Under the pieces are notes generated by a model, which was not told where the DNA came from, ran no database searches, and saw only the letters and a program-made list of their open reading frames with translations. A stretch of DNA of 49,323 bases from an uncultured Gammaproteobacteria bacterium (GTDB taxonomy: Bacteria > Patescibacteriota > Patescibacteriia > UBA11705 > JABHMO01): contig CAYSUN010000003.1 in the NCBI GenBank assembly GCA_964434235.1, positions 1-49,323 on the forward strand. Direction: 5' to 3'. Below, in pieces: positions 20,961-38,958 of the stretch. Numbering within the stretch: the stretch's first letter is position 1; each line of letters opens with the position of its first letter. Both the position numbers and the translations under genes were made by a program.

Positions 20961-21011
20961 GGCACAAAAAGCCCAAACTTAGGGGATAATCTCCTAGTTT
21001 GTACACTAAAA

Positions 21012-21371
21012 TTATTCAAGTAAATATGGAACAAAAATAAATAAAGCAATTACTACGCTTGCAACTGAAGCGACCAAAACAATGGCGGACATAATGTCTT
21101 TAACGTCTTTTACATAATCGTGAAGCCTTGGTTTATACAGATCAACCAATTTTTCAAAAACTGTATTTAGCATTTCCAAAATCAAAACTCCAGCAATCAT
21201 CAAAACTATGAGCGACCACTGCCACAATTTAATCCTAAAAAAAACACCAAAAAAAAGAACAACAAAAGTCAACAAAATATGAATTTTAAAATTTTGTTCA
21301 CTTCTTAGCAAAAAAGCAAAACCGCGGAAAGCATTTTTAAAACTTTTAACTAATCGATTAAATTTAAGCAT
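21012..21371 (-). CDS. dgkA: Diacylglycerol/undecaprenol kinase (DgkA family)
   Basis: SFKNAFRG, EQNFKIH, LEMLNTVFEKLVD, VKDIMSA; three TM segments; follows ybeY. Confidence 0.92.
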   Translation of the reverse strand: MLKFNRLVKSFKNAFRGFAFLLRSEQNFKIHILLTFVVLFFGVFFRIKLWQWSLIVLMIAGVLILEMLNTVFEKLVDLYKPRLHDYVKDVKDIMSAIVLVASVASVVIALFIFVPYLLE

Positions 21372-21777
21372 ACATTTTCTTTAAAATTTTTCTTTCCAAA
21401 GCTTCCATTTTTTCAGCCTCAGAAACTTTTTCATGATCATACCCTAATAAATGCAAAAAACCGTGCAAAGCTAAACGCACAATTTCTTTGGCCGTTGAAT
21501 TACCATAAGCTGGAGCTTGTTTTTCTGCTTGCTTGGGACAAATAATAATTTCACCCAAAAAGTTTTTCTCAGCCCAAACCCCCTTTTCTGAGAAAGATAA
21601 AACATCTGTAATTTGATCTTTTTTTCGATAAATTTTATTCATTTTTTTTATGGTTTGAGGTGTGACAAAACCGATAGAAACTAATTTGTTTTTTTTACAA
21701 GCAACATTAAAAATAGTCTCAATGTTTTTTCTAGGACAACTATATTTTGTTTGATTATTAAACTCAACTTTGATCAT
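21364..21777 (-). CDS. ybeY: rRNA maturation factor YbeY
   Basis: YRKKDQITDVLSF, LGEIII, HGFLHLLGYDH. Confidence 0.96.
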   Translation of the reverse strand: MIKVEFNNQTKYSCPRKNIETIFNVACKKNKLVSIGFVTPQTIKKMNKIYRKKDQITDVLSFSEKGVWAEKNFLGEIIICPKQAEKQAPAYGNSTAKEIVRLALHGFLHLLGYDHEKVSEAEKMEALERKILKKMYA

Positions 21778-21780
21778 AAT

Positions 21781-22974
21781 TTAAAACTCAACTGGTGGAG
21801 CTGTATCATCATCAAGGGCAGGAATCACTAAATCAACATTACTTGGAGTTTCAACCGTGTCTAATTGTTCAAACTGAAAACTATTTACAACTAAAGCAAA
21901 AATATTTGGGAAATTCGCTTCTTCCTTCAAACCAATATTATAATTAAGTGCGTAAACTCTTTTCTTGTCCGGTGATTCAATATAAACAGAAAAACTATCA
22001 GGACTTTCGACTACGTCCAACTTATTATATGTTTGATAATGTTTTAACTGACTAATAAGAACAGATGGGGCCATGCCCAAATACCAATTATCCAAACTTT
22101 GACCGGGAAGTTTATCGTAAACAAATATGTTAATAAATTCATTTTGATTAGAGCTAATCATTAAATCGTTTGGATTATTTTGATCAAGTGGCTGAACCAA
22201 CCAAGTCGTTGGATATAAAATTTTATAACCGTAAACTTTGTTCGTATAATAATCCACACAATCTTCTTCCCACAAACGAACACTAGTATTTTGGGTTGGA
22301 CTATAAAAATTCATAATCTCTTCCTGATCTTTGTAAACATCACCATCTGTATCAACTAAATTTTCGTTTGTACCAAAAATAACTTCTTCAGCATCAGTTA
22401 ACTTATCATTATCTTTATCAGGACCACTTAACAATTTCAAACTAAACTGACTAATTGAATCTGGATTAAACTTTGCCACTTCTGTTACGACTGGTTCTTC
22501 GACAACTTCTGGCTCTTCAATGATTGGTTCCTCAATTATTGGTTCCTCAACGATAGGCTTAACTTGAGGCTCTGGCGCAACAACGACTGGTTGGTCACCA
22601 TTTGTTTGAACAACTGGCTTATCGAAACTCTTGTACAACAAAAACCCAGAAACACCAAGAACAACAACCAAAACAACAACAATTATTAAATTCATTTTGC
22701 CCTTGCTCGCAGGATTTTTAGCTGTTGGCACCTGTGGTGTACCCGTACCGCCAACATTCGCTGTCCCCTTTTTAATATTTATTGGTTTGTTCGAATTAGT
22801 CGCTGACACAGTTTTATTTCCCAAATAATATTCCATCGGCATTGTATGGATTTCTGTTTTTTCTGGTGTCGAAGGTTCATCTTTTTTTTGAACCTCAGGT
22901 GTTACTGCGCCTAATTTTTCAGGCCCAGGAACTGGCCCACTCGAAGCGGGTGTTTTTGTGTTATCGTCGAACAT
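21781..22974 (-). CDS. Single-TM protein with EEP-rich linker, DxDxD repeats and a PsbP-like C-terminal domain
   Basis: TM LIIVVVLVVVLGVSGFLLY; (EEPII)n linker; DKDNDKLTDAEE, DTDGDVYKD; YTNKVYGYKILYPTTW...VVNSFQF. Confidence 0.8.
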   Translation of the reverse strand: MFDDNTKTPASSGPVPGPEKLGAVTPEVQKKDEPSTPEKTEIHTMPMEYYLGNKTVSATNSNKPINIKKGTANVGGTGTPQVPTAKNPASKGKMNLIIVVVLVVVLGVSGFLLYKSFDKPVVQTNGDQPVVVAPEPQVKPIVEEPIIEEPIIEEPEVVEEPVVTEVAKFNPDSISQFSLKLLSGPDKDNDKLTDAEEVIFGTNENLVDTDGDVYKDQEEIMNFYSPTQNTSVRLWEEDCVDYYTNKVYGYKILYPTTWLVQPLDQNNPNDLMISSNQNEFINIFVYDKLPGQSLDNWYLGMAPSVLISQLKHYQTYNKLDVVESPDSFSVYIESPDKKRVYALNYNIGLKEEANFPNIFALVVNSFQFEQLDTVETPSNVDLVIPALDDDTAPPVEF

Positions 22975-23005
22975 ATTAAGTATTAAGTATTAAGTATTAA
23001 GTATT
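22974..23005. repeat. Heptamer tandem repeat (TATTAAG) x about 4.5
   Basis: tattaag at 22974, 22981, 22988 and 22995, then tatt; abuts the start codon. Confidence 0.9.
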
Positions 23006-23019
23006 TTTTAAGAAACTAA

Positions 23020-23709
23020 CTAATTAAGAAGCAAACCATCACCTTTTGGGTTATAACCATTATCAACTTCTTCGCCATCTAAATAACCATCATTATCTGT
23101 ATCAGAATTAAGCGGATCAGTAGTATAATCTTTAACTTCCCTATAATCATCCAAACCATCACCATCTGTATCAACTTTATTTAAATTAGTTCCAAGTGTA
23201 ATTTCCTCTTGATCAAGTAAGCCATCGCCATCTGTATCCAATTCCACTAAAATTGGGGATTCGATTTCAACCTCAGCATTTTCATCAAACATAATTTCAT
23301 CTTCACTTAAATATTCATCATCATAATTCTCATAAATATCTTCATCGAAATATTCATCATCAGAAGTATCAAATTTTAGACTTGCATCGCCAACTTTATT
23401 TGTATCTTCAGATTGGCCAAGCCCAAAAACACCAGTCTTTTGAGTAAAATCAATTAAAAAGAAAATCATCCCAACAGCCACCACAACAATGGCCACAATA
23501 ACCACTATTTTCTTTTTTTTACTTGGCGATATTTTAGGAGTTAACTGTTTTTCTTCAACAATAGGTTGAACAACTGGCGTTACTGGCGCTGGCTCTGAAA
23601 CTGAGCTTACTTGTTCAATTGGTTCTTTGTCTGATTCAAGTTTTTCCTTACTTAAATTGTCGAACATATCTTCTACTGGTGGTTGAGTTTTTTCTTTGTC
23701 TTCAAACAT
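23020..23709 (-). CDS. Single-TM acidic protein with three TSP3-like DTDGDG repeats
   Basis: TM IVVIVAIVVVAVGMIFFLI; DTDGDGLLDQEE, DTDGDGLDDYRE, DTDNDGYLDGEEVDNGYNP. Confidence 0.85.
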   Translation of the reverse strand: MFEDKEKTQPPVEDMFDNLSKEKLESDKEPIEQVSSVSEPAPVTPVVQPIVEEKQLTPKISPSKKKKIVVIVAIVVVAVGMIFFLIDFTQKTGVFGLGQSEDTNKVGDASLKFDTSDDEYFDEDIYENYDDEYLSEDEIMFDENAEVEIESPILVELDTDGDGLLDQEEITLGTNLNKVDTDGDGLDDYREVKDYTTDPLNSDTDNDGYLDGEEVDNGYNPKGDGLLLN

Positions 23710-23732
23710 AAAAATATATAATTAATAGCAAA

Positions 23733-26700
23733 TTAATAAATGTATTGATCTTCTGGAATTTGTGTGGGTTCTGGCAAGGTCACAATATTAAGCATTACGT
23801 TTTCAAGCTGACTTTCCAATGTTGTTGGATTTCCTTGCAACCAAACGCCTTGATAGTTTAGATCAGCAATACAATCAGTTGGACACAAAGGCAAGCCAAA
23901 AACAGGTTCAGCTGAACAACGTTTACCATTCGCTACATTTAAACAACCCTCACCGTCTGTACATGCTTGGCAAATACCATTAACACAATCTCCAGCACAA
24001 TCAAAATCACTGCTACAAGAAAGACCTGCACAAAGCCCATGATATCTATGCCAAAATTGGTATTTTAAATCTGTTTCATCTAAATTTATACTTCTGATAT
24101 AGAATAAATGAAATGGTGTTCTATTAGTATTGATGAGTCCTATTGTGTTTGCTCGATTTTCAAACTCAGTATAATCGTCAGCATCAGTTAAAACAACATA
24201 AACATGGTGTGAGAAATTAACTGGTACAGAATTTTTCACCTCACCAAAATTATACAGATACCGACCATCATTATAAGTTTGCTCAACCCTTGATGCTATT
24301 TGAGCAGCACCATTATAATTATATGGCGAAGCACATTTATCATAAATACCTACCGCACATTTGTTCTGACAATTACCGGTGGTACATACCTTCTGACAAA
24401 AACCAGATGCACACTGTGAATTGTTTTCACAACTTACAGATGAACACCTACCAGGTTCGCCACAATTATAAGTTTGAGCACAAGTCGCCGGTGAATCTAT
24501 ACAATTTTCCCAATTTTCAGAACAACTTAACCACTGAACAAAATTCTCAGCATTTCCCGCTGGATAATATTCCTTTCTTAAATCTCCCGAACGTGAAGTC
24601 TCTAACATATAATAAGCATTTTCACCAAACACATCATCAATACCATTTATGTGAGTACCATCAGCCTTATCAATTCCATTAATCATTTTTTTAATAATAT
24701 CTTGATGAACCCTATCTGGATCATACGTTTGCATACTGCCACTAGTATCAGCAAAGAAAGTAAATAAAACTTTTTTATTTTCATAATCATCATAAGGACC
24801 CTTGCAATCTTGATCATTATTTACGCAAGTTTGCACACTTGGATCACAATAATCAATCAAATAATCGCCATCATTATCAATACCATCACTACACTGAGTT
24901 GGATAAGTTTCATTTCTATCAAAAGCTGAGTCACAGCTTGGGTCAGCAGGCAAAAACTGCACACTACTATTATAAGTATTGCAATAATTATTTGACGCAG
25001 TACAATCATCACAACCCGCAAAATCACACGTACCATCGCCATCATTGTCCCAACCATCATTACAAATATAATCAAAATCTTCTAAAGAATCTGTAATGGA
25101 ATCACACCCAGGGTCACCACCAATTTCAGAATAATCAGTAAAGCCATTGCCATCATTATCAATACCATCTGAACATTGACCAAGAAGATACTCTTCTGGA
25201 TTATCGGGTGGCAAAGCAGGAGAAATCCAATCATCAGAATCAAAACTTGGTGTGACTATAAACTTATAAGTATCATAAGCTGGTCCTGATATTTCAAGAG
25301 CAAACTTCAAATCAAAAGCTGAACTATTGCCAGTTGCAAAAGGGTCTGTTCTAAATGAATAAACATAATGGGCAAAAGGATCTTCGTCATAATAATTAAA
25401 GAACCTTTGCAATTCACTATTGTAACAAGTTAGTTTGTCATAACCGATTGGACAATTTGAACAAAATTCCCCCGGGATCACACATTGATAATCACTAGGA
25501 TTGCCACCAAACTCAACTGGGCACCTGTTTGGCTGTTCTCCTGGCTCAAGCTGCTCAGCTTCACACACTGCTCCAGTATTAATAACATTAGTTTTTACCC
25601 ACTTAAAGTGATTCAAAGGATCCACTGGCAATGATTGTTGCAAGGTGTTCCCAAATTCATTTTGCCAAGATGGCCAAGAACTGAAAGTTCTACCTCGAAC
25701 ATAAGTACCAGATGCTAATTGTGGAACTTGTCCATTGTGAGTTGATTTGTAAATATTTAAATATTGTCGCATCAAAACCATATCCATAATACGACGAGTA
25801 TCTCTAATAAGCTTAGATTTTTCTGGTTGCACACCTTGATTCGTTACCATGTTAGTATTGAACCAAAGAAGATTAACCATTTGAGCATAAATATTTTTCG
25901 TTGCTTCATTAGCATTCAAAGTGTAGCCAAGAACATAAATATTATTATAAATTCTATTTTCAGTTTGACCATTTGTTTCTGCTACATTACTGGAAGCCAC
26001 GTAAACAGTTGCACCGTCTTGAACACCATCATAACAAAATTTACCAAAGTCATCTTCCTGACAATCCAAAGCAATCTTGTTTGGATTAGGGGTTGGATTT
26101 GGAGCATACTTTTGATACCAAATTTCTGGCGGTAAATTTTCTGAATTTTCATAAATTCTCAAAGAAATTGCATCCGCTGCATAATCATTAGTTGGGTAAG
26201 GCAAACCAGTACTTGGATCAACTTTATCGTTTACTCTAATAAAGAAATATTGCTCAAATAATTCAGGCTCTTCCCACGGATCAGTATAACTTTTACATTT
26301 TGGATCACCAATCCAAGTATCTGCATTATAATCTTTTTCGCCATCACCATCATTATCAATTCCATCATTACATTGATTTTGGAAATCACCAGAAAGTTGA
26401 ACCCACGGTAATTGTGATTCCACAAAAAATCCTTGATCTTTGGCTAATTCAGTCAGATTCATGTGATAAAAATCTCCACTCAAACATTTTGAATTCATGT
26501 CATCCAAACTACAATGAGCAACTGAACGATTATTACCAGTTACGTCAAGAACATTGTCATCAAATGTCCATAATCCTTTTAGATTTGGCTCACTTGTCGG
26601 ATCAATAATTTTATTAAGATTTGGGGCAAGGTCATCAGTATCCCAAACGCTAAACTCATCAACAAAACCAGCCAATGAAACTGAAGCTGTTCCAGTTTTT

Positions 26701-29700
26701 CCTAGCCCTCCAATATACAAATCACTATAACCATAACCAGGTGACGGTGGTTCTGTCAGGTTTACTGGCCAATAATTTAAATCATCAATACCAAATTCGT
26801 CTGGTACAGTAGCCACTTCTTCTCCATTAACATAAAGATGAGAAGTGTTTACGCCATCAAAAGACAAAGCAATATGATTAAAGCCACCAGAAAGTAAACC
26901 AGCTCCAGCTTGCGTTGTTCTCACTATTTCTGCTCCATTTGTTTTTATTGAATAAACAATTGAACGCTTATCTGTACAACCAGTACAATTGTTTGTATTA
27001 GCAAAATTACCATAAGCATATTCACAACCATTATCACAATTTTCACCCCAATATCGAAAAGCTAATTGAACGTGATTATTGGTACTAGGATCTTGATCTA
27101 AATTCTTATAAAAAAGTCTAGAAAATTTACTATCAGCATATCCTTCATGATAAACCCAAGATTCAATCATCCAGTCGTTATTTGGACTTGACTCTGAACT
27201 CATAAAGCCAAGATTAGAATCTGAGACTTGAACATAATCTTGATTTCTATCAAAATAAATTCCGTAGCGTGGAGTTACTTCTTTGGTAATAAATTCACCT
27301 AGACCGATATCCACCTTTGGCAAATCATCAGCAAAACCAGGATTACCAAAATCTCGACAATAAAATAATCCTACATTGAAATTCTTTTCATATATATAAG
27401 TTGTTTGATATTCTCCAGTACTAATCAAATTAGTAAATTTACCCCAACGATTTTCACCATTGTTGTCAGGATCTGGCGCATAAGCTGATGGTTCCCAAAG
27501 ATTGTCACAAAGCAAAACTTGGTATTTAGCATTGCCAGTTGTTTTTTCACCAACTGAACTTAATTCTTGACCAAGAAAAGTACCCATTTCTTCGGCTATC
27601 TTATCAACAACAATTACAACATTAGCAGAAATATTAGCTGTACCATTTTTATTATTACTAACTACTTCAACAAATTCATAATCCATTGCTTCGTCTGGTA
27701 ATGGTTGCTGAGCATCTTGATAACAAACCCCAGCGCCATTAGCATAAATATAATCAGCACAACCGGCCATACCAAGGATTAAACTTTCATCACTAATTTT
27801 CCAATCGTACACCCATTCATAAACACCTGGTGATTCAACAATTGGCTGATTACCTTTTCGAGCAATTGCGTTGAAAACAGTTTGCGTATTCGGTTTTGTA
27901 ACAAAAGTTTGTCCAGGTGTTACGGCTACATTATCCACTCGACAAATTTCATTACCAGTAACAAACACACTTGAAATATCACCAAGATTTTCGCCACAAC
28001 TATTTTCAAGATCTTCAAACTTGATAAGATATTCTTTATTTGCCAACAAAGTTGCACTTGGCGTAATAGTTACAATAGAATCACCACTAATACTTTCAGA
28101 AATAGAATATTCTTGTTCAACTTCACAATAACCAGCCTCAGCAAGACCAACCTTAACAAACATATTTTTTACAAACATTTTGACTTTTTGATAAGTTTTA
28201 TTGAAAAAGCCACCTTCATAACTGATATCTGGACAAGATCCAGAAAAACCAAAATAAACCGAACCTTCAGGCAAAACTACTTGCTGATCAAAAGCTACTA
28301 AAACTTGAGAATTCAAACAAACATCTGTTTCATTATTATAAGGATGAGAGTGATTATTATCGATAGAAGCTGAAGATTCACAAATTTCTATTGTGTCTTC
28401 TTCTGAATTATCCCCACAACTAGAACACTGTGGATCAGCTGGATAATCAATTGCTCCGTCCCCATCATTGTCTTGACCATCTGAACATTGAGCAGGTGTT
28501 TGTGAATTATCAACATTTTCACCATCAGTTGGTGAAGTACAATCTGGATCACAAGTATTACAGAGTTGACCAGCCTCACAAAAATCAAACAAACCATCAC
28601 CATCATTATCACGGCCATCACTACAATTGCCTATTTCATCAAGTTCACTGGTATCGCCAGCTGCTTGACAACCAGGATCTCTAGGCAAGAAAGTTGTATT
28701 ACTGTTATGAGTACCGCAATAATCATTATCATAATTACACGTACAACCTTGAGCTCCATAATCACAAAATCCATCTCCATCATTATCTAAACCATCACTA
28801 CAAGCCACATTTTCACACGATCCACCCTCTGAATCATCTTCCGAACTTTCGCAACAAGTATCATCAAGATCAACCAAAGTATCAGAATCATCATCAAGTA
28901 AATTATTACACTGTTTTTTTGTTCCCGGTGTATCTGAATAATCCGAAACATTCGGTAAAATATCTTTATACTTATTAATTAAATAAGGATCATTTGTTCT
29001 ATATTTCAACTTACCAAAACCAGTTTTAGGACTAGCGTCCTCAATCATGTTCGCTGAAATATTCGTAACTGCCTGAATGTAATTAGTTACTACATTATAT
29101 TCAAAAATATAGGCATTCTCATTATTTCTAGTTAAAATAACTGATTCAACATTTCCACTTGGAATAACCGTGGCAACATCATAAGGAGCACCCTTAATCG
29201 CCCCAGCTGGGCAGGTATTGCCTTCACTTGGATCACACGATAAATCATATTCACACTCTGGGTCTTCACCTGGTTCGAATAAAGTATTTCCATCTTGACA
29301 ATAAGAACCATATTCAGTTTGTGAACCTTTATTTATACATGAAGTTGAACAATATTCTGGAAATGTACAAACACAATTGGCTGTACCAAAAATACAACTA
29401 GCCCCATCAGGCCCTAAATATTTACATTCAGCTTCACAATCTTCATCAGGATCAAGAGATGAACCTCCGCCACCTAAATAATTTTCTCTTACTCCATTTC
29501 CACAGCAATTATTACATGAACAAGCTGGATCTGAACTATTACAATTAACTGTTTTTAAATTTTCAATGCAAGTGTCAGCTTCTGTTAATTGACACGCCCA
29601 AGGATAAACATTATCTGCTGTACATTCACTGCAATTAATAACCTTTTTACCGTAAATAGTTTGATTACCAGCCAAAGGATCAGCCACACAACCTGCAGTC

Positions 29701-32700
29701 CCAATCAAACAAGACACCTTGAATGTATCAGCTGAACTTTGACACTGTTCACAATTTATATTTTTTATTCCGACATGATTAGCTGTATCACAAGTTTGAC
29801 CAGCATAACACTGAACTAAACGTGTACCAGGTGCATTACAACCCTCAGTTTGATCTATTTCACAAGTAATTGTTTTTTTGAAAACTCCTGCTCCAATATC
29901 AGAACAACCAACCGCACCTTCATTACAAGGAACTTGCATTGTGCTTAAACAACCAGCGCCCCCAGTACAAGCTTCTATTACTTGATTACAACTAGGATCA
30001 CCAGAATGGCAAGATTCACTTTTGGTGCAATTGTTATCACAACTTGGAAAACCTTTCCACACGCACTTATTTGTGCAAAGTGGATTATTTTCAATGGAAC
30101 AAACACAATCATCACCAGTGGTACATTCATGCCTTAAGTCATCAAGACAAACTGCTTCGCACTCTTCTCCAATATCAATCCTGCCGTCACCGCAAAGTGC
30201 CATATTTTGGATTTCACTACTTTTATATTTTGATCCAGTGTGTAAACATAATGAAGATAATCCTGATTTTGCATTATTAGAACCTTTATCATCATCTTCT
30301 CCCGGTTCAACAATTCCATTACCACATTCATAACCTTGAGTTGTACCTTTGTTTAAGCAGGTGCTAGTACAAGCTGGCGAACCACTAGTTCCATCGTCAC
30401 ACTCTTCCCCAGCATCAACAATGCCATTGCCACAATCAGTACTAATAATTGGTTCAGTTAAACAAATATCACTACAACCATCGCCAGGTACGTCATTTCC
30501 ACCATCACATTCTTCTCCCAAATCATAATCAATTTTATTATCACCACAAACAGCAGCGTAAGGCTCACCACCTGTTACTTGGCATTTATCATTACAATAA
30601 GGTTGAACATTAGCTCCAAGATTTAAATTTAAAACTGTAGCAATGACCGGATACTGACTTTCCCAAGTCCAGTCATAATCAAATGGAGTTAACAATTGTC
30701 CATTTGCGTCACATTGATTTGGCATTGAATATGGTTCTGTCCAATATTCAACTCTTTCTCCAACTTTTTCTGAAATATAATATTTTGGCACTAATTCTAC
30801 TCGATCAACTTGACATTTAGTATCATCATTTTTAGTTTTAAATATCCAACTAAAAGCGTCATACGCACCAGTTGCGCCAACCTCAAAGGTATCCGCACTA
30901 GTACATTGATTATCTGGTTTATAATAAGTTGAATTTTGTTTAATAGCAGAAAGCAAAGCTGAATCTGTAATAAAATCATCGTTACTTAAATTTTGACAAG
31001 TAATAGCTGAATTTTCTGGACAAACAAGTTGCGCAGTTAATTCTGCATAACCAACAAACTCACCTTCAGAATAACAACCACAAACATAATCAAGTTCAGT
31101 TCCTTCGCCTTCAATATAACCACCTGTAACATCAATTCCTCCATCTCCGTCATTATCCAAATTATCAGAGCAATCGCCATCCGGCGCCCCAGCAGTTGCA
31201 TAATTCAAATTACTTAAAACAACTTGGCTAGAACTTTTAATTCCGTTCGTTAAAACTACCCGGTAATATGTATTAGGACTTAAAACGCCATTATTTAAAC
31301 CGATAAGTGTTCGAAAAAATCTACCCTCAGTAAAATCTGTTCCAGAATTATACTGAATATTCAAATTTTCAACAGGACTAAGGGAAGTACAATCAGAAGA
31401 AAAACAAGAATAAATTTTTACTGTGCTTGAATTTAAAGTTGTATCATCCATCTCGATATTAAAGTTGGCTGTAATCGCTGTATTGATACAGGCTTCATCA
31501 CAATTAGGATAAGACCTGATAACTTTTGGTTTTTGAAATTTTACTTGTAAAAAGCCTTTTTTATAAAGTGAATCAAACAAAGCTGCTAAATCAGCATCTC
31601 CAGGCACAGCTGAAACTGAAATTTCATAAGGGTCCCATGGCAAACTTTCAAAAACAGTATTGGCAGGGTTTTCATCAACTTTTAATTTATAATAACCAAT
31701 ATATTTCTCACTATTAGTTGGATCAGTACAAATTAAATGATTGGTAGCAGAAACTGGTGAATAAGGATTAAACTCAGAACAAGCATAACCAGCAAATTGA
31801 ACCTTGGATTGATCAGCAGTTGCAACTTGCCAATCCCAATTTTCATCAACCAAAGCAATATCCTGACATTGGTATTGACCAGAAACAATATATTTAGCAT
31901 TACCATAAAGTTCATTAATTAAACCAACAAGCGGAGTTAAAAGTAAATTTTCTGGTATGCAAATTTCTTCTTTTGTTAAAAATGACCATTTATAATTACC
32001 AACCATGTACTTTGAAGTACTTGTAGCAGTCGTTCCTATCGGTGCCCGAACTCCAGAGTAACCACCACGTACTGTAATTTCATACCAAGTATTTGGAAAT
32101 AAATAATTATCAATATTATCTACCAGCCCAGGATTAATTCCACCGCTAACTGTGTTATTATTTGAATCTTTGAGTGAACTATATAAATTAATTCTTGATA
32201 AAGCTTGACCAGAACCAACACATATACAACCTTCACTATCTGGCTGGCAAACTGCTCCACTAGAATTTTGACAACTATAATTTAATGTTTCTGAAGCATA
32301 ATCAGTTGATTGATTGAAATACTGAATTATTCTAGAAATACAAACTCCTGGCACAACACTATTTTCAGTGCTTGAACAAGCGTTTAGATCACATTTTACA
32401 CCAGTTGAATTTAAACATCTTTTAACAACTATATTATTAGAAAGTGTTGTTGGTTCTACTGGTAAACTAAAAGTAAAACCAATCGTGCCATTAATACAAG
32501 CTGAGCTTGAATTACGATATGGTGAAGGCGATTGACTATAAGCGCCAGGTAAACAAGTTCGTTCTAAAACAGCTAAAATTTCTGGTAATGGCCCAGTACT
32601 CAAAACCCACATATACTCTGATGGTAAATATTCAAACTCTTCTTCACAAGACCCAGAAGTTTGACAAATACCAGTAGCACAACACTCTTCTCCATTGCTA

Positions 32701-35700
32701 CATGAGCCTGGCGTACAACTTCCAACATTAAATATATAAGTATTACTTCGATCACTGCCATCATCTTTTTCTAGAAAAACACCACCAGATTTGGCGCCGG
32801 CAGGTACAACTGCATTCAAAATTTGTTCAGCTGACCATTCATTAAAACTACTAACGGCTACGCCCGAATCAACCTCCCCTAATGTTCCTCCATTCGCAGA
32901 AAATTTTAGAATGTAACCCCCTTGATTACCAAAATATTCACCGAACACATTAACCCCAGTTCCAACTGGTCCATTATTTGGATCAATTGAACAAATACCA
33001 GGTGTTGGCTCGCCGTCTGAAATATTAATATCAAAAGGCGCACTTACTAAACCATCGGCTGTATATAAAATTAATGAATAATCAAGACTATATGGATCTG
33101 TTCCGCCAGGCAATTCATTAGCAATATTTTCTGGAATTTTTATTATAATCTGTTCATTGTTCCAATTTATTTTGTTACAACCAAAAACTGCTGGCCAATC
33201 ATAGGAATAACCATTGATTGTTGTATGAACTTCGACAAAACCAACCTTATCACCAAAATACAAACCATTAACATTAAACATTTGTCCAATGTGTAAAGTA
33301 TCTGGGTTAACACTTTCTATTACCGGGAAATTCGCACTTGGAATAACTTGAAAAAGCGCTGGATTACTAACAACACTTTTGCAAACACAACTTTCTGATC
33401 CTTCTGAACACAAAGATCCTTCACTATCTTTACATAATAAACCTTTATCTACGTAAACATTATATGATCCATCAGCAAGGCTAGGAACTTCAATTCCAGT
33501 AATTTGTGTATTAGTCCACTGCCCTTCTCCATAAAGTGCCCCAATCAAACCAAAAGTCACATTATCATCGTTTTCTTTTGTTGTTCCAAAATTTTCACCT
33601 GAAGCCTTTACTGTATTACTAATTGCACCTTGGTTACAAGTAACTAGAATATCTCCCTGCACGCCAGGAGTACAACCCTGCAATTGAATTGAACACAAAC
33701 CTGGATAATTTATCGTTGGATCAACTATAAAATCGCCTAAATATCCTTTTTCATCATCATCAGTTGTATCAACTTGCCCTAAATAATTTACAACCTTAAT
33801 TGGTCCGGTCACAGCACCAGTTGGAACCTTGGCGATTATTCTATTTGGACCCCAAGAAGAATTAGGGTCACAAGCAACACCTGCCTCCAAATAAGTTCCG
33901 TTTGGTCCACTAAAATAAATCCTACCTTGATTTTCATTACCAAACTTTTGTAAAAAACCAACACCAACAATTGTAACCAAATTACCTGGGCCAGCACTTA
34001 TTGGAGCAATATCCACAATTTCCGGAACTGTTACGCACATACCTTCACAAGCTACTCCTTCTTCACAGTCAGAATCATTTGCACAATCAATGTTATCTTC
34101 ATCAGCACAAGATAGTCTACAAATACCTGCGCATTGATCATCATTTGTACAACTAGTTCCATCACAAGCTCCACATTCTGGTTTTGATCCATCACTGTCA
34201 CAAATTAATTGACCATTACCATCAAAACAATATTCAGGCAAAACCTTAACTGAAATAGATTTGGTTCCTATTTGTCCAACAACATCCTCTGTTTCAGCTT
34301 TTAAAATATAACTTCTTAATTCATAATCATAAGTATCCCAATAAATACTTGTTTCAAACAGCCTAGGAGTAATATTACCTTGTGGCACGTTTACACCTAA
34401 AGCTGGAGATAACTCGTCTTCAAATAAACTAGTATAACTAATTCCACCATCATCAACAGATTTTAGTAAAACATTATATTCAAAATTTTCACTTACCTTT
34501 GAACCATTTATCAAATTCATGAAATTTACACTTGGAGCAGTAACATCACAAACTGCATTTGTAGTAAATTCTGTATTACAAAGACTTCCAACACTACAAA
34601 GCAAACTGTAACTTCCCGCTATAGCTTTGACACCACCCTCATTTAAACGAACACTAACCTTGGTATTAGCATCAAAACATTTTTGTCCACTGCAAACTTC
34701 ATCTTGACAATCCTTATCTGGAGTAAAAGTAACAGTTGCACCATCACCAGACAAAGCAAAAGAACCAGCAATTTCAGTTTCTTCACCAGCTACAAATTCT
34801 TCATTTTCAACTTCAACAAAAGCATAATCAAACTTAATACAATTTGAGCCAACCCTTTTTAGATAAACATATATATCATCGCTATTGTCATAACAAGCAC
34901 TAGGAATGTCCAATTTACTTTCGCCACTTTCAGTCTTATACTCATCTGCAATATAATACTGCTTACTCCTAGCAATAGCTTCCGTTGGACCACAACTAAT
35001 ATCAAAATAAGCCCTATCCCCAGCTGCGATCAGATCAAATGCCAGTTTTACAGAAAGAGCTTGCTCATGATTAACTTCAGCCACATTATAGTGTAAAACC
35101 ATTTTATCATCACCCAAATACAAAGGGTTACCATTTGCGATTGAACATACAACCCAACCAGAATTATAAACACTATCATCTGCAATAATTTCAGGTAAAA
35201 TTATATCTTCATTACCATTAGATTCTACAGCAGAATCTGGAACAATCTGAGTAGTCACTATTTCTTTTTCACCAATTTTAGTAATTTTAATATTTTCACT
35301 TGTAACAGTGGCTGGATTTAGGGATTTAGAAAAAGAAATATTAAGCTTAGAATTAATTGGCATGCCATTTCCTTGAGGAGAAACTCCAGTAACAATCAAC
35401 TGACTTTCACTACCAATAATTATCGGCAAAGTATCTCCACCAGTATTATCGTTTGCATTAAATCCAGTTGCATCAGACAAACGGCTCAAAACAAAAGTAG
35501 TAATTGCATAAGCAGAAAATATTATAACTAAACCGATCACACCATTAATCATCCATTTCTTGGCTTTACCAACCTTATCATCACTACCACCTGAAGTCAT
35601 ATACAAAAATCCACCATAAAGAAATATAACCAAAGCGACCGTACCAACTAAGCCAAGAAAAACTTTTATAATACTACCTATTATTGTTCGGATATCCCCA

Positions 35701-35852
35701 TTGCCCAGACCTGTTTGTTCTCCCACAATGTCAACGCCTAAATTATCTTGAGCAAATACTTGATTGGCAAAAGAAAAACCAACTACTACGAATAGCATTA
35801 TTAAAAGTAGGTAAAGAATTTTAGTTCTTTTATTTTTATTTTTACTAAACAT
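23733..35852 (-). CDS. Giant 4039-aa multidomain surface protein with a pilin-like N-terminus
   Basis: Signal peptide (VFAQ); TM hairpin IIKVFLGLVGTVALVIFLYGGFLYMTSGG..KVGKAKKWMINGVIGLVIIFSAYAI (TrbC/VirB2-like); Ig-like and IPT/TIG repeats; CGNGIVDAGEECDDG repeats; about 9 CxDGxDNDGDG repeats; LamG-like WMIESWV...FNHIALSFDG...GFVDEF; pseudopilin-like RDTRRIMDM...LPVDPLN; vWA-like FADTSGSM...VLTD. Confidence 0.9.
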   Translation of the reverse strand: MFSKNKNKRTKILYLLLIMLFVVVGFSFANQVFAQDNLGVDIVGEQTGLGNGDIRTIIGSIIKVFLGLVGTVALVIFLYGGFLYMTSGGSDDKVGKAKKWMINGVIGLVIIFSAYAITTFVLSRLSDATGFNANDNTGGDTLPIIIGSESQLIVTGVSPQGNGMPINSKLNISFSKSLNPATVTSENIKITKIGEKEIVTTQIVPDSAVESNGNEDIILPEIIADDSVYNSGWVVCSIANGNPLYLGDDKMVLHYNVAEVNHEQALSVKLAFDLIAAGDRAYFDISCGPTEAIARSKQYYIADEYKTESGESKLDIPSACYDNSDDIYVYLKRVGSNCIKFDYAFVEVENEEFVAGEETEIAGSFALSGDGATVTFTPDKDCQDEVCSGQKCFDANTKVSVRLNEGGVKAIAGSYSLLCSVGSLCNTEFTTNAVCDVTAPSVNFMNLINGSKVSENFEYNVLLKSVDDGGISYTSLFEDELSPALGVNVPQGNITPRLFETSIYWDTYDYELRSYILKAETEDVVGQIGTKSISVKVLPEYCFDGNGQLICDSDGSKPECGACDGTSCTNDDQCAGICRLSCADEDNIDCANDSDCEEGVACEGMCVTVPEIVDIAPISAGPGNLVTIVGVGFLQKFGNENQGRIYFSGPNGTYLEAGVACDPNSSWGPNRIIAKVPTGAVTGPIKVVNYLGQVDTTDDDEKGYLGDFIVDPTINYPGLCSIQLQGCTPGVQGDILVTCNQGAISNTVKASGENFGTTKENDDNVTFGLIGALYGEGQWTNTQITGIEVPSLADGSYNVYVDKGLLCKDSEGSLCSEGSESCVCKSVVSNPALFQVIPSANFPVIESVNPDTLHIGQMFNVNGLYFGDKVGFVEVHTTINGYSYDWPAVFGCNKINWNNEQIIIKIPENIANELPGGTDPYSLDYSLILYTADGLVSAPFDINISDGEPTPGICSIDPNNGPVGTGVNVFGEYFGNQGGYILKFSANGGTLGEVDSGVAVSSFNEWSAEQILNAVVPAGAKSGGVFLEKDDGSDRSNTYIFNVGSCTPGSCSNGEECCATGICQTSGSCEEEFEYLPSEYMWVLSTGPLPEILAVLERTCLPGAYSQSPSPYRNSSSACINGTIGFTFSLPVEPTTLSNNIVVKRCLNSTGVKCDLNACSSTENSVVPGVCISRIIQYFNQSTDYASETLNYSCQNSSGAVCQPDSEGCICVGSGQALSRINLYSSLKDSNNNTVSGGINPGLVDNIDNYLFPNTWYEITVRGGYSGVRAPIGTTATSTSKYMVGNYKWSFLTKEEICIPENLLLTPLVGLINELYGNAKYIVSGQYQCQDIALVDENWDWQVATADQSKVQFAGYACSEFNPYSPVSATNHLICTDPTNSEKYIGYYKLKVDENPANTVFESLPWDPYEISVSAVPGDADLAALFDSLYKKGFLQVKFQKPKVIRSYPNCDEACINTAITANFNIEMDDTTLNSSTVKIYSCFSSDCTSLSPVENLNIQYNSGTDFTEGRFFRTLIGLNNGVLSPNTYYRVVLTNGIKSSSQVVLSNLNYATAGAPDGDCSDNLDNDGDGGIDVTGGYIEGEGTELDYVCGCYSEGEFVGYAELTAQLVCPENSAITCQNLSNDDFITDSALLSAIKQNSTYYKPDNQCTSADTFEVGATGAYDAFSWIFKTKNDDTKCQVDRVELVPKYYISEKVGERVEYWTEPYSMPNQCDANGQLLTPFDYDWTWESQYPVIATVLNLNLGANVQPYCNDKCQVTGGEPYAAVCGDNKIDYDLGEECDGGNDVPGDGCSDICLTEPIISTDCGNGIVDAGEECDDGTSGSPACTSTCLNKGTTQGYECGNGIVEPGEDDDKGSNNAKSGLSSLCLHTGSKYKSSEIQNMALCGDGRIDIGEECEAVCLDDLRHECTTGDDCVCSIENNPLCTNKCVWKGFPSCDNNCTKSESCHSGDPSCNQVIEACTGGAGCLSTMQVPCNEGAVGCSDIGAGVFKKTITCEIDQTEGCNAPGTRLVQCYAGQTCDTANHVGIKNINCEQCQSSADTFKVSCLIGTAGCVADPLAGNQTIYGKKVINCSECTADNVYPWACQLTEADTCIENLKTVNCNSSDPACSCNNCCGNGVRENYLGGGGSSLDPDEDCEAECKYLGPDGASCIFGTANCVCTFPEYCSTSCINKGSQTEYGSYCQDGNTLFEPGEDPECEYDLSCDPSEGNTCPAGAIKGAPYDVATVIPSGNVESVILTRNNENAYIFEYNVVTNYIQAVTNISANMIEDASPKTGFGKLKYRTNDPYLINKYKDILPNVSDYSDTPGTKKQCNNLLDDDSDTLVDLDDTCCESSEDDSEGGSCENVACSDGLDNDGDGFCDYGAQGCTCNYDNDYCGTHNSNTTFLPRDPGCQAAGDTSELDEIGNCSDGRDNDGDGLFDFCEAGQLCNTCDPDCTSPTDGENVDNSQTPAQCSDGQDNDGDGAIDYPADPQCSSCGDNSEEDTIEICESSASIDNNHSHPYNNETDVCLNSQVLVAFDQQVVLPEGSVYFGFSGSCPDISYEGGFFNKTYQKVKMFVKNMFVKVGLAEAGYCEVEQEYSISESISGDSIVTITPSATLLANKEYLIKFEDLENSCGENLGDISSVFVTGNEICRVDNVAVTPGQTFVTKPNTQTVFNAIARKGNQPIVESPGVYEWVYDWKISDESLILGMAGCADYIYANGAGVCYQDAQQPLPDEAMDYEFVEVVSNNKNGTANISANVVIVVDKIAEEMGTFLGQELSSVGEKTTGNAKYQVLLCDNLWEPSAYAPDPDNNGENRWGKFTNLISTGEYQTTYIYEKNFNVGLFYCRDFGNPGFADDLPKVDIGLGEFITKEVTPRYGIYFDRNQDYVQVSDSNLGFMSSESSPNNDWMIESWVYHEGYADSKFSRLFYKNLDQDPSTNNHVQLAFRYWGENCDNGCEYAYGNFANTNNCTGCTDKRSIVYSIKTNGAEIVRTTQAGAGLLSGGFNHIALSFDGVNTSHLYVNGEEVATVPDEFGIDDLNYWPVNLTEPPSPGYGYSDLYIGGLGKTGTASVSLAGFVDEFSVWDTDDLAPNLNKIIDPTSEPNLKGLWTFDDNVLDVTGNNRSVAHCSLDDMNSKCLSGDFYHMNLTELAKDQGFFVESQLPWVQLSGDFQNQCNDGIDNDGDGEKDYNADTWIGDPKCKSYTDPWEEPELFEQYFFIRVNDKVDPSTGLPYPTNDYAADAISLRIYENSENLPPEIWYQKYAPNPTPNPNKIALDCQEDDFGKFCYDGVQDGATVYVASSNVAETNGQTENRIYNNIYVLGYTLNANEATKNIYAQMVNLLWFNTNMVTNQGVQPEKSKLIRDTRRIMDMVLMRQYLNIYKSTHNGQVPQLASGTYVRGRTFSSWPSWQNEFGNTLQQSLPVDPLNHFKWVKTNVINTGAVCEAEQLEPGEQPNRCPVEFGGNPSDYQCVIPGEFCSNCPIGYDKLTCYNSELQRFFNYYDEDPFAHYVYSFRTDPFATGNSSAFDLKFALEISGPAYDTYKFIVTPSFDSDDWISPALPPDNPEEYLLGQCSDGIDNDGNGFTDYSEIGGDPGCDSITDSLEDFDYICNDGWDNDGDGTCDFAGCDDCTASNNYCNTYNSSVQFLPADPSCDSAFDRNETYPTQCSDGIDNDGDYLIDYCDPSVQTCVNNDQDCKGPYDDYENKKVLFTFFADTSGSMQTYDPDRVHQDIIKKMINGIDKADGTHINGIDDVFGENAYYMLETSRSGDLRKEYYPAGNAENFVQWLSCSENWENCIDSPATCAQTYNCGEPGRCSSVSCENNSQCASGFCQKVCTTGNCQNKCAVGIYDKCASPYNYNGAAQIASRVEQTYNDGRYLYNFGEVKNSVPVNFSHHVYVVLTDADDYTEFENRANTIGLINTNRTPFHLFYIRSINLDETDLKYQFWHRYHGLCAGLSCSSDFDCAGDCVNGICQACTDGEGCLNVANGKRCSAEPVFGLPLCPTDCIADLNYQGVWLQGNPTTLESQLENVMLNIVTLPEPTQIPEDQYIY

Positions 35853-35883
35853 CCGTTTATATATTATTTATTTTATAAATAAT

Positions 35884-38061
35884 TTACTGAAGCTCACTTG
35901 GGCCTAGTGGTTGGGCACATTCATCACCAGCAACTGCTTGCAATCCAAAAGTTCCATCTTGTGGACAGCATGAATAACCAGAAGAATTATTATTGCAAGA
36001 ACTTCCCTCCACTGATCCATCTTGATTTACAGTTGGACTAAAACAATTCATCCGAGTGTCTTTTAATTCTGATTTTATAATTGGTGTATATATAGGTAAA
36101 AGATCTTCACCATCTTCATATTCTCTAAATGGTGCATGAGTAATGGCAATCGTTGTCATATTAACAACTGCTGGAGTTGATGGATCTGAATCAGCATCCA
36201 CTAACTCAAAATTTGAGTCAAACCAACCATCAAAATCTTTTCCATTGCCATGTTTACCATATAAATAAACTTCTTCATCAACTGACTGTGCATCCAAATC
36301 TTCACTAAAAGTAGCTTTAATAGTTACGGTCGGAGAAATAGAACCAGCTGTAGCGCCAACACTATGCGAAGGATTTAAATTAGTTAAAACAGGACCAATC
36401 AAATCCAAAGTATTACCAGTTAAAAAATCCCAATAATAACTATCCAAAATTGTTGCTAAATCACTAGCTAAAGTATCAACAGGACCAGGTCCTTCCATTT
36501 GTCCATTAGCATTACCATCAAGAGAATTACCTCCCATATCCATAATTCCAGTTCCAGGATTAGCCACACCTTCACTAATAATTTCAGCAGCTAAAATTCG
36601 GCCTGTAATATTAGCATTACTTGGCAAACATTTCGCTGGCTCACCACAAGAATTACTTGCACCTTGCTCGCAATCCGTATCAGCTACGAACTGAATAGTT
36701 CGATATTGATTTAAACCTACTCGCCAAGTACCAGGGATAAAATTCGTATCACAACCAGCAATTGAAGAATCTGATAACATTTGAACTTCATTATCACCCA
36801 CTCCATCAGCACTACCACAACCTTGAATTTGCGTTAATGGAGGAATAACTGGCTCACTAAAATTAATATAAATTGCTTGATTTAAATAAACCTTGCCTTG
36901 ACAATCAGCATTAGAACAACCTATTTGTTTTATGCCACATTTACAATTTCTTAAACTTTCCGCTGAAATAGGATATTCAACATTGGCCGGAACTACAGAA
37001 GTTACAGTTGGTGGGGTAAGGTCCACAAATGTTCCTGTTGTAAAACGCCATTTGTAATCAGGGTAAGAAAAATTAAAAACTCCACCTCCGGCTTGTTCAT
37101 CGATACCCAACTTTTGGATAGCTGAAGTTAAATATACTATATATGTTTCATCTTTTTCTTCACTTCCGAGATGAATATTAAAATTATTAAAAGGATTAAA
37201 AATTAAAGTTTTATTATCTTCTGTCATCATGGCATAACCGGGAACAAGTTTATTACCATTACAAATATTATTGACACAATTTCCACCACCACACTCGGAA
37301 TCTACTGCACAAGCACGGCCTTCAGCAATATCGTAAAATGGAACCTGCTGACAACTCTTTGTTACATCCAAAGAATGCTCGGCCATCATATCAGCACATT
37401 TATAAACACGAATAGCATCTTTTTTTATTTCGCCACAAGTGGCAACTCCAGGAGGACAATTAGCATTGGAATTTTCATCAATAACTGATCCTGGGAAAAT
37501 CGGAGTTTTAAAAGTAACTAAAATTTGAGTATTGCGAGGAACTCCTGTTTGTTCTGGTTCTGGATAATGGCTTTGAATAATATGCCCAAAAGCACCACCA
37601 GAAATATTGTATCCACCACCAGCCAAACCTGCAGTTAAAAAATATCCAGGAGGATTTACGTTGGGATTAGAATTATCAAATAAACCGAATACAAAACTGG
37701 TAATTGAATAAGCAGCAAATATTATAACCAGACCAATAAAACCATTTTTTAACCATTTTTTAGCTACACCAAGTTTAGTTTCATCACCTCCGGCCGTCAT
37801 ATAAAGGAAACCGGCACCTAAAACAATTATCAAACCGATCGCCCCGATAAGACCAAGCGCAACTTTTATAATATTTCCAACAATGATTCGGGGATCAGTT
37901 TTTTGTAAAACTGTTTGACCAGCAACAGTATCAAGATTTGCAGTCATGTCACTCTGAGCATGAACAGCAATTGGAACAAATAAAAAAACTGCCAATATAA
38001 ACACTAAACAACTGACAGTTATTTTTATTACTCTCTGAGAGAATAGTTTATTTAAATTCAT
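35884..38061 (-). CDS. 725-aa surface protein with pilin-like N-terminus and Ig-like domains
   Basis: Signal peptide (VHAQ); IIKVALGLIGAIGLIIVLGAGFLYMTAGGDETKLGVAKKWLKNGFIGLVIIFAAYSI is paralogous to the 4039-aa N-terminus; HYPEPEQTGVPRNTQILVTF and DLTPPTVTSVVP Ig-like units; GAGGGG before the ATG. Confidence 0.88.
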   Translation of the reverse strand: MNLNKLFSQRVIKITVSCLVFILAVFLFVPIAVHAQSDMTANLDTVAGQTVLQKTDPRIIVGNIIKVALGLIGAIGLIIVLGAGFLYMTAGGDETKLGVAKKWLKNGFIGLVIIFAAYSITSFVFGLFDNSNPNVNPPGYFLTAGLAGGGYNISGGAFGHIIQSHYPEPEQTGVPRNTQILVTFKTPIFPGSVIDENSNANCPPGVATCGEIKKDAIRVYKCADMMAEHSLDVTKSCQQVPFYDIAEGRACAVDSECGGGNCVNNICNGNKLVPGYAMMTEDNKTLIFNPFNNFNIHLGSEEKDETYIVYLTSAIQKLGIDEQAGGGVFNFSYPDYKWRFTTGTFVDLTPPTVTSVVPANVEYPISAESLRNCKCGIKQIGCSNADCQGKVYLNQAIYINFSEPVIPPLTQIQGCGSADGVGDNEVQMLSDSSIAGCDTNFIPGTWRVGLNQYRTIQFVADTDCEQGASNSCGEPAKCLPSNANITGRILAAEIISEGVANPGTGIMDMGGNSLDGNANGQMEGPGPVDTLASDLATILDSYYWDFLTGNTLDLIGPVLTNLNPSHSVGATAGSISPTVTIKATFSEDLDAQSVDEEVYLYGKHGNGKDFDGWFDSNFELVDADSDPSTPAVVNMTTIAITHAPFREYEDGEDLLPIYTPIIKSELKDTRMNCFSPTVNQDGSVEGSSCNNNSSGYSCCPQDGTFGLQAVAGDECAQPLGPSELQ

Positions 38062-38153
38062 TGTGACCCCTCACATTTTACCACCTTGAGGTAATCCACA
38101 CCTAAAATTGGGTAAAACGTATATTAATTTTTATTTTTTATTTTTGTCCGCAT

Positions 38154-38600
38154 TTAGCCAAGTATTTCTTTGACTGCCTGGCCAACAACAGAACCATCAG
38201 CTTGACCTTTCAAAGCTTCCATTACTGATCTCATTACTTTTCCAAAGTTTGTTTTGTCTTCTTCTGCTAATTCTGCTATCACTTCTTGAACTTTAATTTT
38301 CACTTCTTCAAGTGAAAGTTGCTCTGGCATATATTCTTCCAAAACCTTAACTTCAGCTAATTCCTTATCAACCAAATCTTGTCTTAAACCCTGTTTATAA
38401 GCCTCAGCTGAATCTTTTCTTTTTTTAATTTCACTCTTCACCGTCGCAATAATATCATCTTCGGTAAGTTCTTTACCCATCATTTCTATTGATTTGTTTT
38501 TGATAGCACTTTTCAGCATTCGCAAAACAGACAAAACATCCTGATTCTTGTCTCTCATTGCTTGAAGAAAAGCCTGATCAATATTTTTACTTAGGCTCAT
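38154..38600 (-). CDS. yqeY: GatB/YqeY domain protein
   Basis: LRMLKSAIKN, EIKKRKDSAEAY, YMPEQLS, FGKVM...GQADG; directly after rpsU. Confidence 0.93.
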   Translation of the reverse strand: MSLSKNIDQAFLQAMRDKNQDVLSVLRMLKSAIKNKSIEMMGKELTEDDIIATVKSEIKKRKDSAEAYKQGLRQDLVDKELAEVKVLEEYMPEQLSLEEVKIKVQEVIAELAEEDKTNFGKVMRSVMEALKGQADGSVVGQAVKEILG

Positions 38601-38636
38601 ATAGATTATACTAAATTTTAACTAAGATTAAAAGTT

Positions 38637-38955: not shown

Positions 38956-38958
38956 GCC

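Follow-up and report, generated by a model that had tools for sequence, protein, structure and literature searches.

What purpose could be served by joining a pilin to a protein of several thousand residues? The question is raised by four adjacent genes, here called G1 to G4, in a 49,323-nucleotide stretch of DNA (the window), which makes up positions 1 to 49,323 of contig CAYSUN010000003.1 in assembly GCA_964434235.1, deposited as an uncultured Gammaproteobacteria bacterium and placed by GTDB in the Patescibacteriota. The window has 34% G+C and is part of a 1.13-Mb genome in 63 contigs, in which the contig carrying the four-gene module is designated C3. We find that G1 and G2 encode secreted proteins in which a two-helix hairpin matching pilin families of the VirB2 type is followed by a large ectodomain, that G3 and G4 encode small membrane proteins with TSP3 repeats, that the four genes form a unit conserved across one class of the phylum, that the hairpins are under marked constraint, and that the same genome codes for a type IV secretion system (T4SS). 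These observations can be accommodated by a model to which we lend roughly even credence: G1 and G2 would be modular VirB2-type pilins that display adhesin-like cargo by way of contacts between their heads and short pilins or the T4SS. The genes, with lengths of the open reading frames (ORFs) in amino acids (aa), are as follows:

35884..38061, minus strand: G1, 725-aa ORF; signal peptide, VirB2-type hairpin, Gly-rich linker and Cys-containing ectodomain of ~590 aa with Big_5
23733..35852, minus strand: G2, 4039-aa ORF; signal peptide, VirB2-type hairpin, Gly-rich linker and ectodomain of ~3,900 aa
23020..23709, minus strand: G3, 229-aa ORF; one membrane span and three TSP3 repeats
21781..22974, minus strand: G4, 397-aa ORF; one membrane span, two TSP3 repeats and a PsbP/Mog1-like domain

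The first-pass annotation of this DNA had described four co-oriented genes with 23-45-bp gaps, and the ORF coordinates bear this out, the intervals being 31, 23 and 45 bp for G1-G2, G2-G3 and G3-G4 on the minus strand. The stretch is matched in six lake-water metagenome DNA runs. A scan of positions 20900-39000 for promoters and terminators gave counts close to the shuffle expectation and no terminator-like site in the three gaps, a weak result that we do not use as evidence.

Pilin-type heads on two secreted proteins

The first ~200 residues of G1 and G2 are paralogous (37% identity over 198 aa, E 7e-31) and share the string GFLYMT.GG...AKKW..NG.IGLVIIF.AY.I, as expected from the first-pass proposal of a signal peptide and transmembrane hairpin common to both large proteins. 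Each protein has three hydrophobic segments, one in the signal peptide and two that form the hairpin, and the Sec signal peptides of the two heads end in VHA or VFA before Q, following the A-x-A pattern. The T4SS_pilin family (PF18895) matches G1 with 28.7 bits and G2 with 44.1 bits against a cut-off of 26.6. When residues 1-450 of G2 are used as a separate query, this score is 46.9 bits and the TrbC/VirB2 family (PF04956) also matches, with 30.7 bits against a cut-off of 27.9; on the complete G2 the latter scores 26.5 bits, below the cut-off. A 642-aa homologue of G1 is already named “pilin” by NCBI. The two hairpins lie at the following positions:

37678..37893, minus strand: pilin hairpin of G1, residues 57-128; helix 1, basic loop AGGDETKLGVAKKW, helix 2
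35478..35693, minus strand: pilin hairpin of G2, residues 54-125; supported by PF18895, PF04956 and an AlphaFold2 (AF2) model

The two loops, SGGSDDKVGKAKKW and AGGDETKLGVAKKW, are both basic and end in ...KAKKW. The AF2 model of the G2 head, built from 27 sequences, has helices at residues 6-33, 54-86 and 91-129, with pLDDT >90 in the hairpin helices. In the VirB2 topology, the loop is cytoplasmic and both ends of the hairpin are outside; with the loop in the cytoplasm and both ends facing out, all of the cargo of G1 and G2 would therefore be extracellular. Thus far, the signal peptide, two hydrophobic helices and short basic loop are those of TrbC/VirB2 pilins. A mature pilin of this type is a small protein of ~70-130 aa that ends soon after helix 2, whereas G1 runs on for ~590 aa and G2 for ~3,900 aa.

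A four-gene unit and its parts

Conservation of the unit was assessed in two samples. The first consisted of 40 relatives, of which 4 belong to the same genus, 11 to the same family, 10 to the same order and 15 to the same class. Matches to G1 and G4 lie on one contig in 26 of these; in the other 14, the two are on different contigs or the G4 match is weak (G009, G030), and absence of the unit from these genomes is not demonstrated, because the assemblies are in 20-150 contigs. All 26 loci that were fetched keep the order G1-G2-G3-G4 on one strand, with the four genes contiguous in 23; G3 is duplicated in two loci, and three (G006, G033, G038) contain additional ORFs, a split giant gene or a second one. 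The unit sits in a common order, hisS-rpsU-yqeY-[G1-G2-G3-G4]-ybeY-dgkA-ftsA, in which yqeY directly precedes G1 in 21/26 loci and ybeY directly follows G4 in 24/26. The second sample comprised 300 genomes drawn evenly from the phylum, 16 of the same class and 284 of other classes. Full-length G4, with its C-terminal domain covered, is found in all 16 same-class genomes, and among the matches listed from other classes only the part with the membrane span and TSP3 repeats is present. The profile of the G1 ectodomain (E <= 1e-8) recovers 14 of the 16 same-class genomes as well as our own genome, and none of the 284 from other classes. G1 and G4 are 9-14 kb apart on the same contig and strand in 12 of the 16. 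The independent class sample thus agrees with the first in answering the question of co-conservation, on which the first-pass idea of a four-part organization hinged. Judged from gene order and distribution, the four-gene unit is vertically inherited across one class. As for the identity of that class, the 80 related loci come from Candidatus Falkowbacteria, Kuenenbacteria, Uhrbacteria, Komeilibacteria and Buchananbacteria or from genomes labeled Parcubacteria or Patescibacteria group, so that the first-pass mention of Parcubacteria was only roughly right; the five named lineages belong to GTDB class ABY1.

The flanks in the window, assigned with Pfam, conform to the common order, with hisS also upstream of the module and ybeY beginning 3 bp past G4:

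38154..38885, minus strand: rpsU (S21) and yqeY, the upstream flank
21012..21777, minus strand: ybeY and dgkA, the downstream flank, followed by ftsA and ftsZ

The hairpins stand out in the orthologue alignments by their invariant Gly, Ala and Met positions and conserved loop. Expressed as mean pairwise identity across the same 26 genomes, helix 1, loop and helix 2 are conserved at 53%, 52.5% and 55% in G1 and at 57%, 52% and 57% in G2, against 23-27% for the membrane spans of G3 and G4, 26-32% for the signal peptides and 37% for the G1 ectodomain. The heads are also close to conventional pilins of the same genome, which encodes nine short PF18895 pilins of 120-140 aa in an array at C4:22261-26191: the G2-head profile matches all nine, and it scores the 132-aa pilin at C4:23039 (123.5 bits) above the G1 head (119.5 bits), while own-profile scores of the heads are 119-133 bits. 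The two heads also track each other. Within one genome, the G1 and G2 heads have a median identity of 57.5%, and between genomes the medians are 46% for G1-G1, 51% for G2-G2 and 46% for G1-G2, a comparison whose weight is limited by relatedness among the genomes. The heads do not resolve into two reciprocally monophyletic groups, G1 and G2, and in four genomes the heads of the same genome are sisters with strong support; at one locus (L065), identity between the two reaches 90% at the protein level and 86% at the DNA level. Such a pattern points to gene conversion within the adjacent pair or to co-evolution, and together with the constraint on the hairpins it would fit specific contacts from head to head or from head to machine. 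It is because of this constraint, the closeness to the short pilins and the tracking of the heads within genomes that we favor a carrier over a passive anchor as the role of the hairpin.

The cargo of the two proteins is extensive and, in G2, uneven in its conservation. The G1 ectodomain carries SbsA-type Ig-like Big_5 domains (41.1 bits) and 23 cysteines, and 25 aligned orthologues share 44 invariant columns. G2 has 198 Cys (4.9%), several Big_5 matches and six C..G.DND.DG motifs, along with DUF4215-like Cys repeats that score under the cut-off. An ESM Atlas look-up of G2 residues 400-1500 returned the SbsA Ig-like family as its only leads, with a best score of 0.78. The 12-kb frame of G2 is open and orthologous in 25 relatives, where it spans 2184 to 3880 aa behind the same head. 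Relative to 26 orthologues, its conserved core consists of residues 1-200, 400-1500, 1700-1900, 2500-2850 and 3200-3500, interspersed with lineage-specific inserts at 1900-2500, in the LamG region (kept in only ~7/26) and in the last 480 residues (~2-3/26), and with Cys-rich repeats that are variable. Two regions of this cargo can be delimited:

26640..26951, minus strand: LamG/concanavalin-A-like domain of G2, residues 2968-3071; PF13385, 29.2 bits (cut-off 27.6) when searched as a segment
25293..26255, minus strand: conserved C-terminal core of G2, residues 3200-3520; present in 22-25/26 orthologues

The C-terminal core bears the motif RDTxRxxDxV..L..Y...G..P.L..GTY.RG...S.WPSWQ...LP.DP.N and has no match among Pfam families or PDB sequences. 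It aligns over 29 columns (hhalign probability 90%) with the alpha-1C helix of type IV pilins encoded in the same genome, and we retain a putative type IV pilin-like domain in this core as a lead. Its motif, in the shorter form RDxxRxxD...Y...G..P...LP.DP.N, recurs in a domain inserted into two class-level orthologues of G4 (L065:11597-12904 and L068:10503-11738). A vWA domain at the C-terminus of G2 was considered on account of a DTSGS motif at residue 3702 but was rejected, as the region matches no VWA family (E <= 0.05) or PDB sequence.

A single hydrophobic segment is present in G3 and in G4, with an N-terminus predicted to be cytoplasmic, and both have TSP3 repeats, as the first-pass annotation had recognized in calling them single-span proteins with DxDxDG repeats. 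In alignments of 28 G3 and 26 G4 orthologues, the cytoplasmic tail often begins with MF[DE]D and contains an EDIF motif in G3 and an invariant Met-Pro within an IHxMPxEYY motif in G4; the membrane span, poorly conserved in sequence, is followed by a low-complexity linker that is acidic in G3 and rich in Pro/Glu in G4. G3 has three TSP3_bac (PF18884) repeats, with 46.8 bits against a cut-off of 25 and with aspartates that do not vary among the orthologues, and a tail with the motif GYNPxGPGKLLN. G4 has no Pfam match at E <= 0.01; it shares a 50-residue DxDxDG stretch with G3 (BLASTP E 1e-7), and the aspartates of its two DxDxDGLTDxEE repeats (D186, D188, D190, D208, D210 and D212) are invariant in 26 orthologues. 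The remainder of G4 forms a domain of its own:

21865..22272, minus strand: PsbP/Mog1-like domain of G4, residues ~235-370 (~150 residues); AF2 model and Foldseek

The AF2 model of G4 has pLDDT >90 over residues 180-370, and a Foldseek search of the domain against the PDB gave three matches at E <= 0.001, with CyanoP (2xb3) at E 9.8e-5 and a target TM-score of 0.55; further rows were PsbP, Mog1, Tsi3 and Mycobacterium tuberculosis Apa. Going by the predicted structure, the C-terminal domain of G4 has the PsbP/Mog1 fold. Elsewhere in the window there is another such pairing: a 316-aa protein (6443..5493, minus strand), which has a single membrane span and two TSP3 repeats, immediately precedes a large secreted protein (5443..2, minus strand), which exceeds the window, is at least 1814 aa long and has a signal peptide ending in AQA before QV, no Pfam match and no pilin head. 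With only 5 TSP3-like small genes genome-wide, there are too few for testing an association with giant genes.

Secretion machinery, other carriers and competing explanations

The first-pass annotation had suggested locating a VirB4-like ATPase elsewhere in the genome, and one is indeed present, along with other core genes of a T4SS. The canonical models PF03135, PF04610 and PF02534 have no match in this genome, and its T4SS genes are detected only with PF19044, PF12846, PF01935 and PF10412. Contig C1 carries a Gram-positive-type core with PrgI (VirB3-like) and a 635-aa VirB4-like ATPase (P-loop_TraG, 103 bits; AAA_10), and contig C24 carries a VirD4-like coupling protein (TrwB_AAD_bind, TraG-D_C). 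Of 41 genomes (the relatives and our own), 39 have the VirB4-like gene, at 58-88% identity. Five genes precede that for the ATPase (C1:18862-25966), and those of 1049, 520, 406 and 222 aa among them have no Pfam match; they are likely to be divergent T4SS parts of the VirB6/VirB8 type. The four-gene module is thus encoded apart from the machinery, being on C3. The short-pilin array likewise lies apart from the VirB4-like gene, its flanks (C4:19866-26191) coding for a nucleotidyl transferase, a solute-binding protein and phosphoglucose isomerase. According to a published survey, pilin genes are near virB4 in only 1135/1948 patescibacterial assemblies (PMC12102498). As to pili of the other kind, a scan of the genome's own ORFs for the class III signal motif identified five candidate type IV pilins, all elsewhere in the genome, and neither G1 nor G2. 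A PilT-like T2SSE ATPase (window positions 16618-17649) and DprA (46991-48082) place type IV pilus and competence functions near the module.

The hairpin also heads other large proteins of the phylum, where PF18895 has matches in 117 of the 121 genomes sampled. In 14 control genomes there is no match at E <= 1e-7, and a single control match, in Haloferax, appears at E <= 0.01. A genome of another class (G048; L162, C1:496000-515900) encodes, between short pilins, a 1239-aa pilin-headed CARDB protein with 47.7 bits to PF18895 and 35.5 bits to TrbC; this array has the same context as that of our own genome, with a nucleotidyl transferase and a solute-binding protein next to the pilins. In a further class (G130:C33:40000-51653), the pilin is joined to SLT and Amidase_2 domains in a 606-aa protein and to SLT and a GDSL lipase in one of 702 aa, both located between a PD40 protein and RadA; the syntenic locus in our own genome (C1:47231-53645) has a 783-aa protein combining the pilin with Peptidase_C39_2 (C39-like). 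A broader search with the hairpin profile gave 97,354 cluster representatives at E <= 0.001, and most of the best 150 of these consist of tandem hairpins, from 2 to 17 in number; one example has 8 that follow its signal peptide. Such public proteins (P0023, P0024, P0039 and others) may be viewed as a kind of “polypilin” behind a single signal peptide. In a 1028-aa protein of our own genome (C32:6897-9983), the pilin hairpin is C-terminal (residues 958-1020, 28.6 bits), a position consistent with a hairpin whose two ends are both extracellular.

In the model of G1 and G2 as modular VirB2-type pilins, the ~75-residue hairpin, the same module as in the nine short pilins of the genome, would be a carrier and not a passive anchor. 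It would allow the cargo to dock to, or polymerize with, the short pilins through the chromosomal Gram-positive-type T4SS, and G1 and G2 may accordingly be envisaged as minor subunits, located either in a pilus, at its tip or its base, or at the T4SS machine itself, where they would present an adhesin-like surface to the host cell. G3 and G4 would be membrane-tethered calcium-binding accessory subunits, in physical association with the other two in the same complex; the first-pass annotation had proposed a host-contact system of an episymbiont in which they may be anchors or Ca-dependent chaperones. A number of observations weigh against this. In canonical VirB2 pilins the chain stops just past helix 2 and is often cyclized or trimmed; the 3,900-aa tail rules out such processing and would be intolerable on every subunit of a filament. 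The module never adjoins T4SS genes and is at least 30 kb from them where a contig is shared (G033, G038, G039). A basic loop between hydrophobic helices is what the positive-inside rule gives any membrane hairpin. Foldseek with the head model gave no match in the PDB at E <= 0.001, the VIA fold search retrieved generic helical hairpins alone, of the ESCRT-III type with Z ~10, and the head profile matched no solved VirB2 pilin among PDB sequences, a two-helix hairpin being an uninformative type of query for fold searches. Because these structure searches gave generic hairpins, the assignment to the pilin family rests on the Pfam profiles and topology; in keeping with the TrbC/VirB2 likeness first proposed, the N-termini pass curated thresholds, both heads that of PF18895 and the G2 head that of PF04956. 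Beyond the Ig-like and LamG domains, G1 and G2 match no Pfam adhesin family, and none of the RNA runs searched for the locus has a match.

The finding of other pilin-headed proteins invites a wider version of the same idea, which we advance only tentatively: the VirB2-type hairpin may be a general carrier in Patescibacteria, and the essential T4SS, which lacks a relaxase, may be a device for contact with and breach of host cells and not a conduit for DNA. Such a system would build or dock a heteropolymer of short pilins with covalent cargo such as giant adhesins, peptidoglycan hydrolases and lipases, and the four-gene unit would be the attachment organelle of the class, with G3 and G4 as its calcium-dependent membrane base. 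About as much credence, and again well short of an even share, goes to the chief competing explanation, the view that the hairpin is a mere membrane anchor and that G1 to G4 form a surface coat or adhesin complex unrelated to the T4SS or to any filament. The placement of the module in a housekeeping operon distant from the T4SS genes would sit well with this, as would a cargo size that speaks against a regular filament subunit, the presence of Big_5, a family of Ig-like domains from the S-layer protein SbsA, and the precedent of the hydrolases PrgK and TraG of Gram-positive T4SSs, which are reportedly simply anchored in the membrane. Yet a passive anchor would be expected to vary as do the spans of G3 and G4, whereas the hairpins are 53-57% identical; moreover, the heads are as near to the short pilins as to each other, they track each other within genomes, and in another class a fused pilin is located inside a short-pilin array.

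The S-layer link of the Ig-like domains may also be read in a different way, with the module as a structural complex of the envelope or one linked to division, such as an S-layer-like lattice or a septal structure that plays no part in host contact. This would account for its universal presence in the class, for its place between rpsU-yqeY and ybeY-dgkA-ftsA, kept in 26 loci, and for a giant gene that takes up ~1% of the genome, as might a bulk structural protein. We nevertheless regard it as improbable: conserved gene order with housekeeping genes is common and does not necessarily entail a shared function, a Pfam search of the module proteins for S-layer homology or cell-wall-binding domains found none, and the lineage-specific inserts of G2, including its LamG region, its last 480 residues and its variable Cys repeats, are characteristic of proteins that face ligands, as opposed to lattice proteins. 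An artefact, whether a chance frame, a mis-assembly or a spurious Pfam match, has next to no likelihood of explaining the giant frame or the match to pilins. The scores of G1 against PF18895 and of the G2 head against PF04956 are admittedly near their cut-offs, and there is the one control match in Haloferax; against this stand the orthologous frames with the same head in 25 relatives, the recovery of the stretch in six DNA runs, own-profile scores above 100 bits and the silence of all 14 controls at the stricter threshold.

Relation to known systems

If G1 and G2 are indeed modular pilins, they bear on a gap in the current picture of the patescibacterial T4SS. In the cultured Saccharibacterium Southlakia, arrays of VirB2-like pilins are essential (Wang et al. 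2023, PMC10633639; PMC12102498; PMC12857230), and the T4SS has been reported as indispensable to epibiotic growth in the only species examined, with its function described as completely unknown (PMC10633639, PMC11665869, PMC12102498). A survey of these systems assigns no adhesin to them, having detected none of the PrgB kind (Quinonero-Coronel et al. 2025, PMC12102498), and its accessible text uses “fused” for VirB3-VirB4 only. In the literature accessible to us, with supplementary tables outside the search, neither the module nor any fusion of a VirB2-type head to a large ectodomain is described. The products of G1 to G4 may thus be considered candidates for the missing host-attachment part of the patescibacterial T4SS, and pilin heads joined to adhesin-like, wall-degrading or lipid-degrading modules as testable candidates for host-facing display by it. 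That the four-gene unit amounts to ~1% of a 1.1-Mb genome would imply a central role, and the unit, which is vertically inherited, also offers a clean marker for a single large class of uncultured bacteria.

G1 and G2 have the same Pfam families and the same layout of signal peptide, two helices and basic loop as VirB2/TrbC pilins and the patescibacterial arrays. They differ from them in continuing for 590 or 3,900 extracellular residues where those pilins end after helix 2 and in being placed in a housekeeping operon away from virB4, in a fixed four-gene unit with TSP3 proteins, in one class. The T4SSs of Gram-positive bacteria are said to employ surface factors such as the adhesin PrgB and the membrane-anchored peptidoglycan hydrolases PrgK/TraG. 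G1 and G2 would be comparable to these as surface proteins of large size with a part in the cell contact or wall opening of a monoderm T4SS, and the pilin-headed proteins with SLT plus amidase or lipase domains from another class resemble hydrolases of the VirB1 type. However, G1 and G2 are anchored by a pilin hairpin instead of a plain membrane span or an LPXTG motif. The small proteins, for their part, share the TSP3 calcium-binding repeats with bacterial proteins of the PF18884 family, and the predicted fold of the G4 domain is one that acts as a protein-binding module in solved structures (PsbP, Tsi3 and mycobacterial Apa). The combination, in G4, of a cytoplasmic N-terminus, a single span, TSP3 repeats and a PsbP-like domain is, among the matches listed, confined to this class.

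Two further systems invite comparison with G2 in particular. The giant surface proteins of the Absconditicoccaceae (PMC13059738) resemble it in being very large and exported, in carrying domains of the adhesion type (concanavalin A, calcium-stabilized repeats) and in having been proposed to act in host contact; they belong to a different class, and the accessible text describes no VirB2-type head, paired smaller paralogue or four-gene unit for them (PMC13059738). The closest parallel in design is offered by the modular type IV pilins, such as PilB (vWA) and PilC (lectin) of S. sanguinis (Raynaud et al. 2021, PMC8179133), which follow the same arrangement of a small N-terminal carrier (in their case the pilin module IPR012902), a short linker and a C-terminal module such as an adhesin, lectin or peptidase that a filament displays, and have a LamG/concanavalin-A-like module in common with G2. 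The two nevertheless belong to unrelated superfamilies: G1 and G2 lack the class III signal peptide and N-methyl motif and bear a Sec-type signal peptide instead, and their carrier, unlike that of the type IV pilins, is a two-helix hairpin with both ends outside. They also differ in scale, as the extreme size given for a modular type IV pilin in the portion of that study available to us is 860 aa (PMC8179133), against a cargo of up to 3,900 aa in G2. If the reading of G1 and G2 as modular pilins is true, the modular pilin idea would extend from type IV pili to the unrelated VirB2 family.

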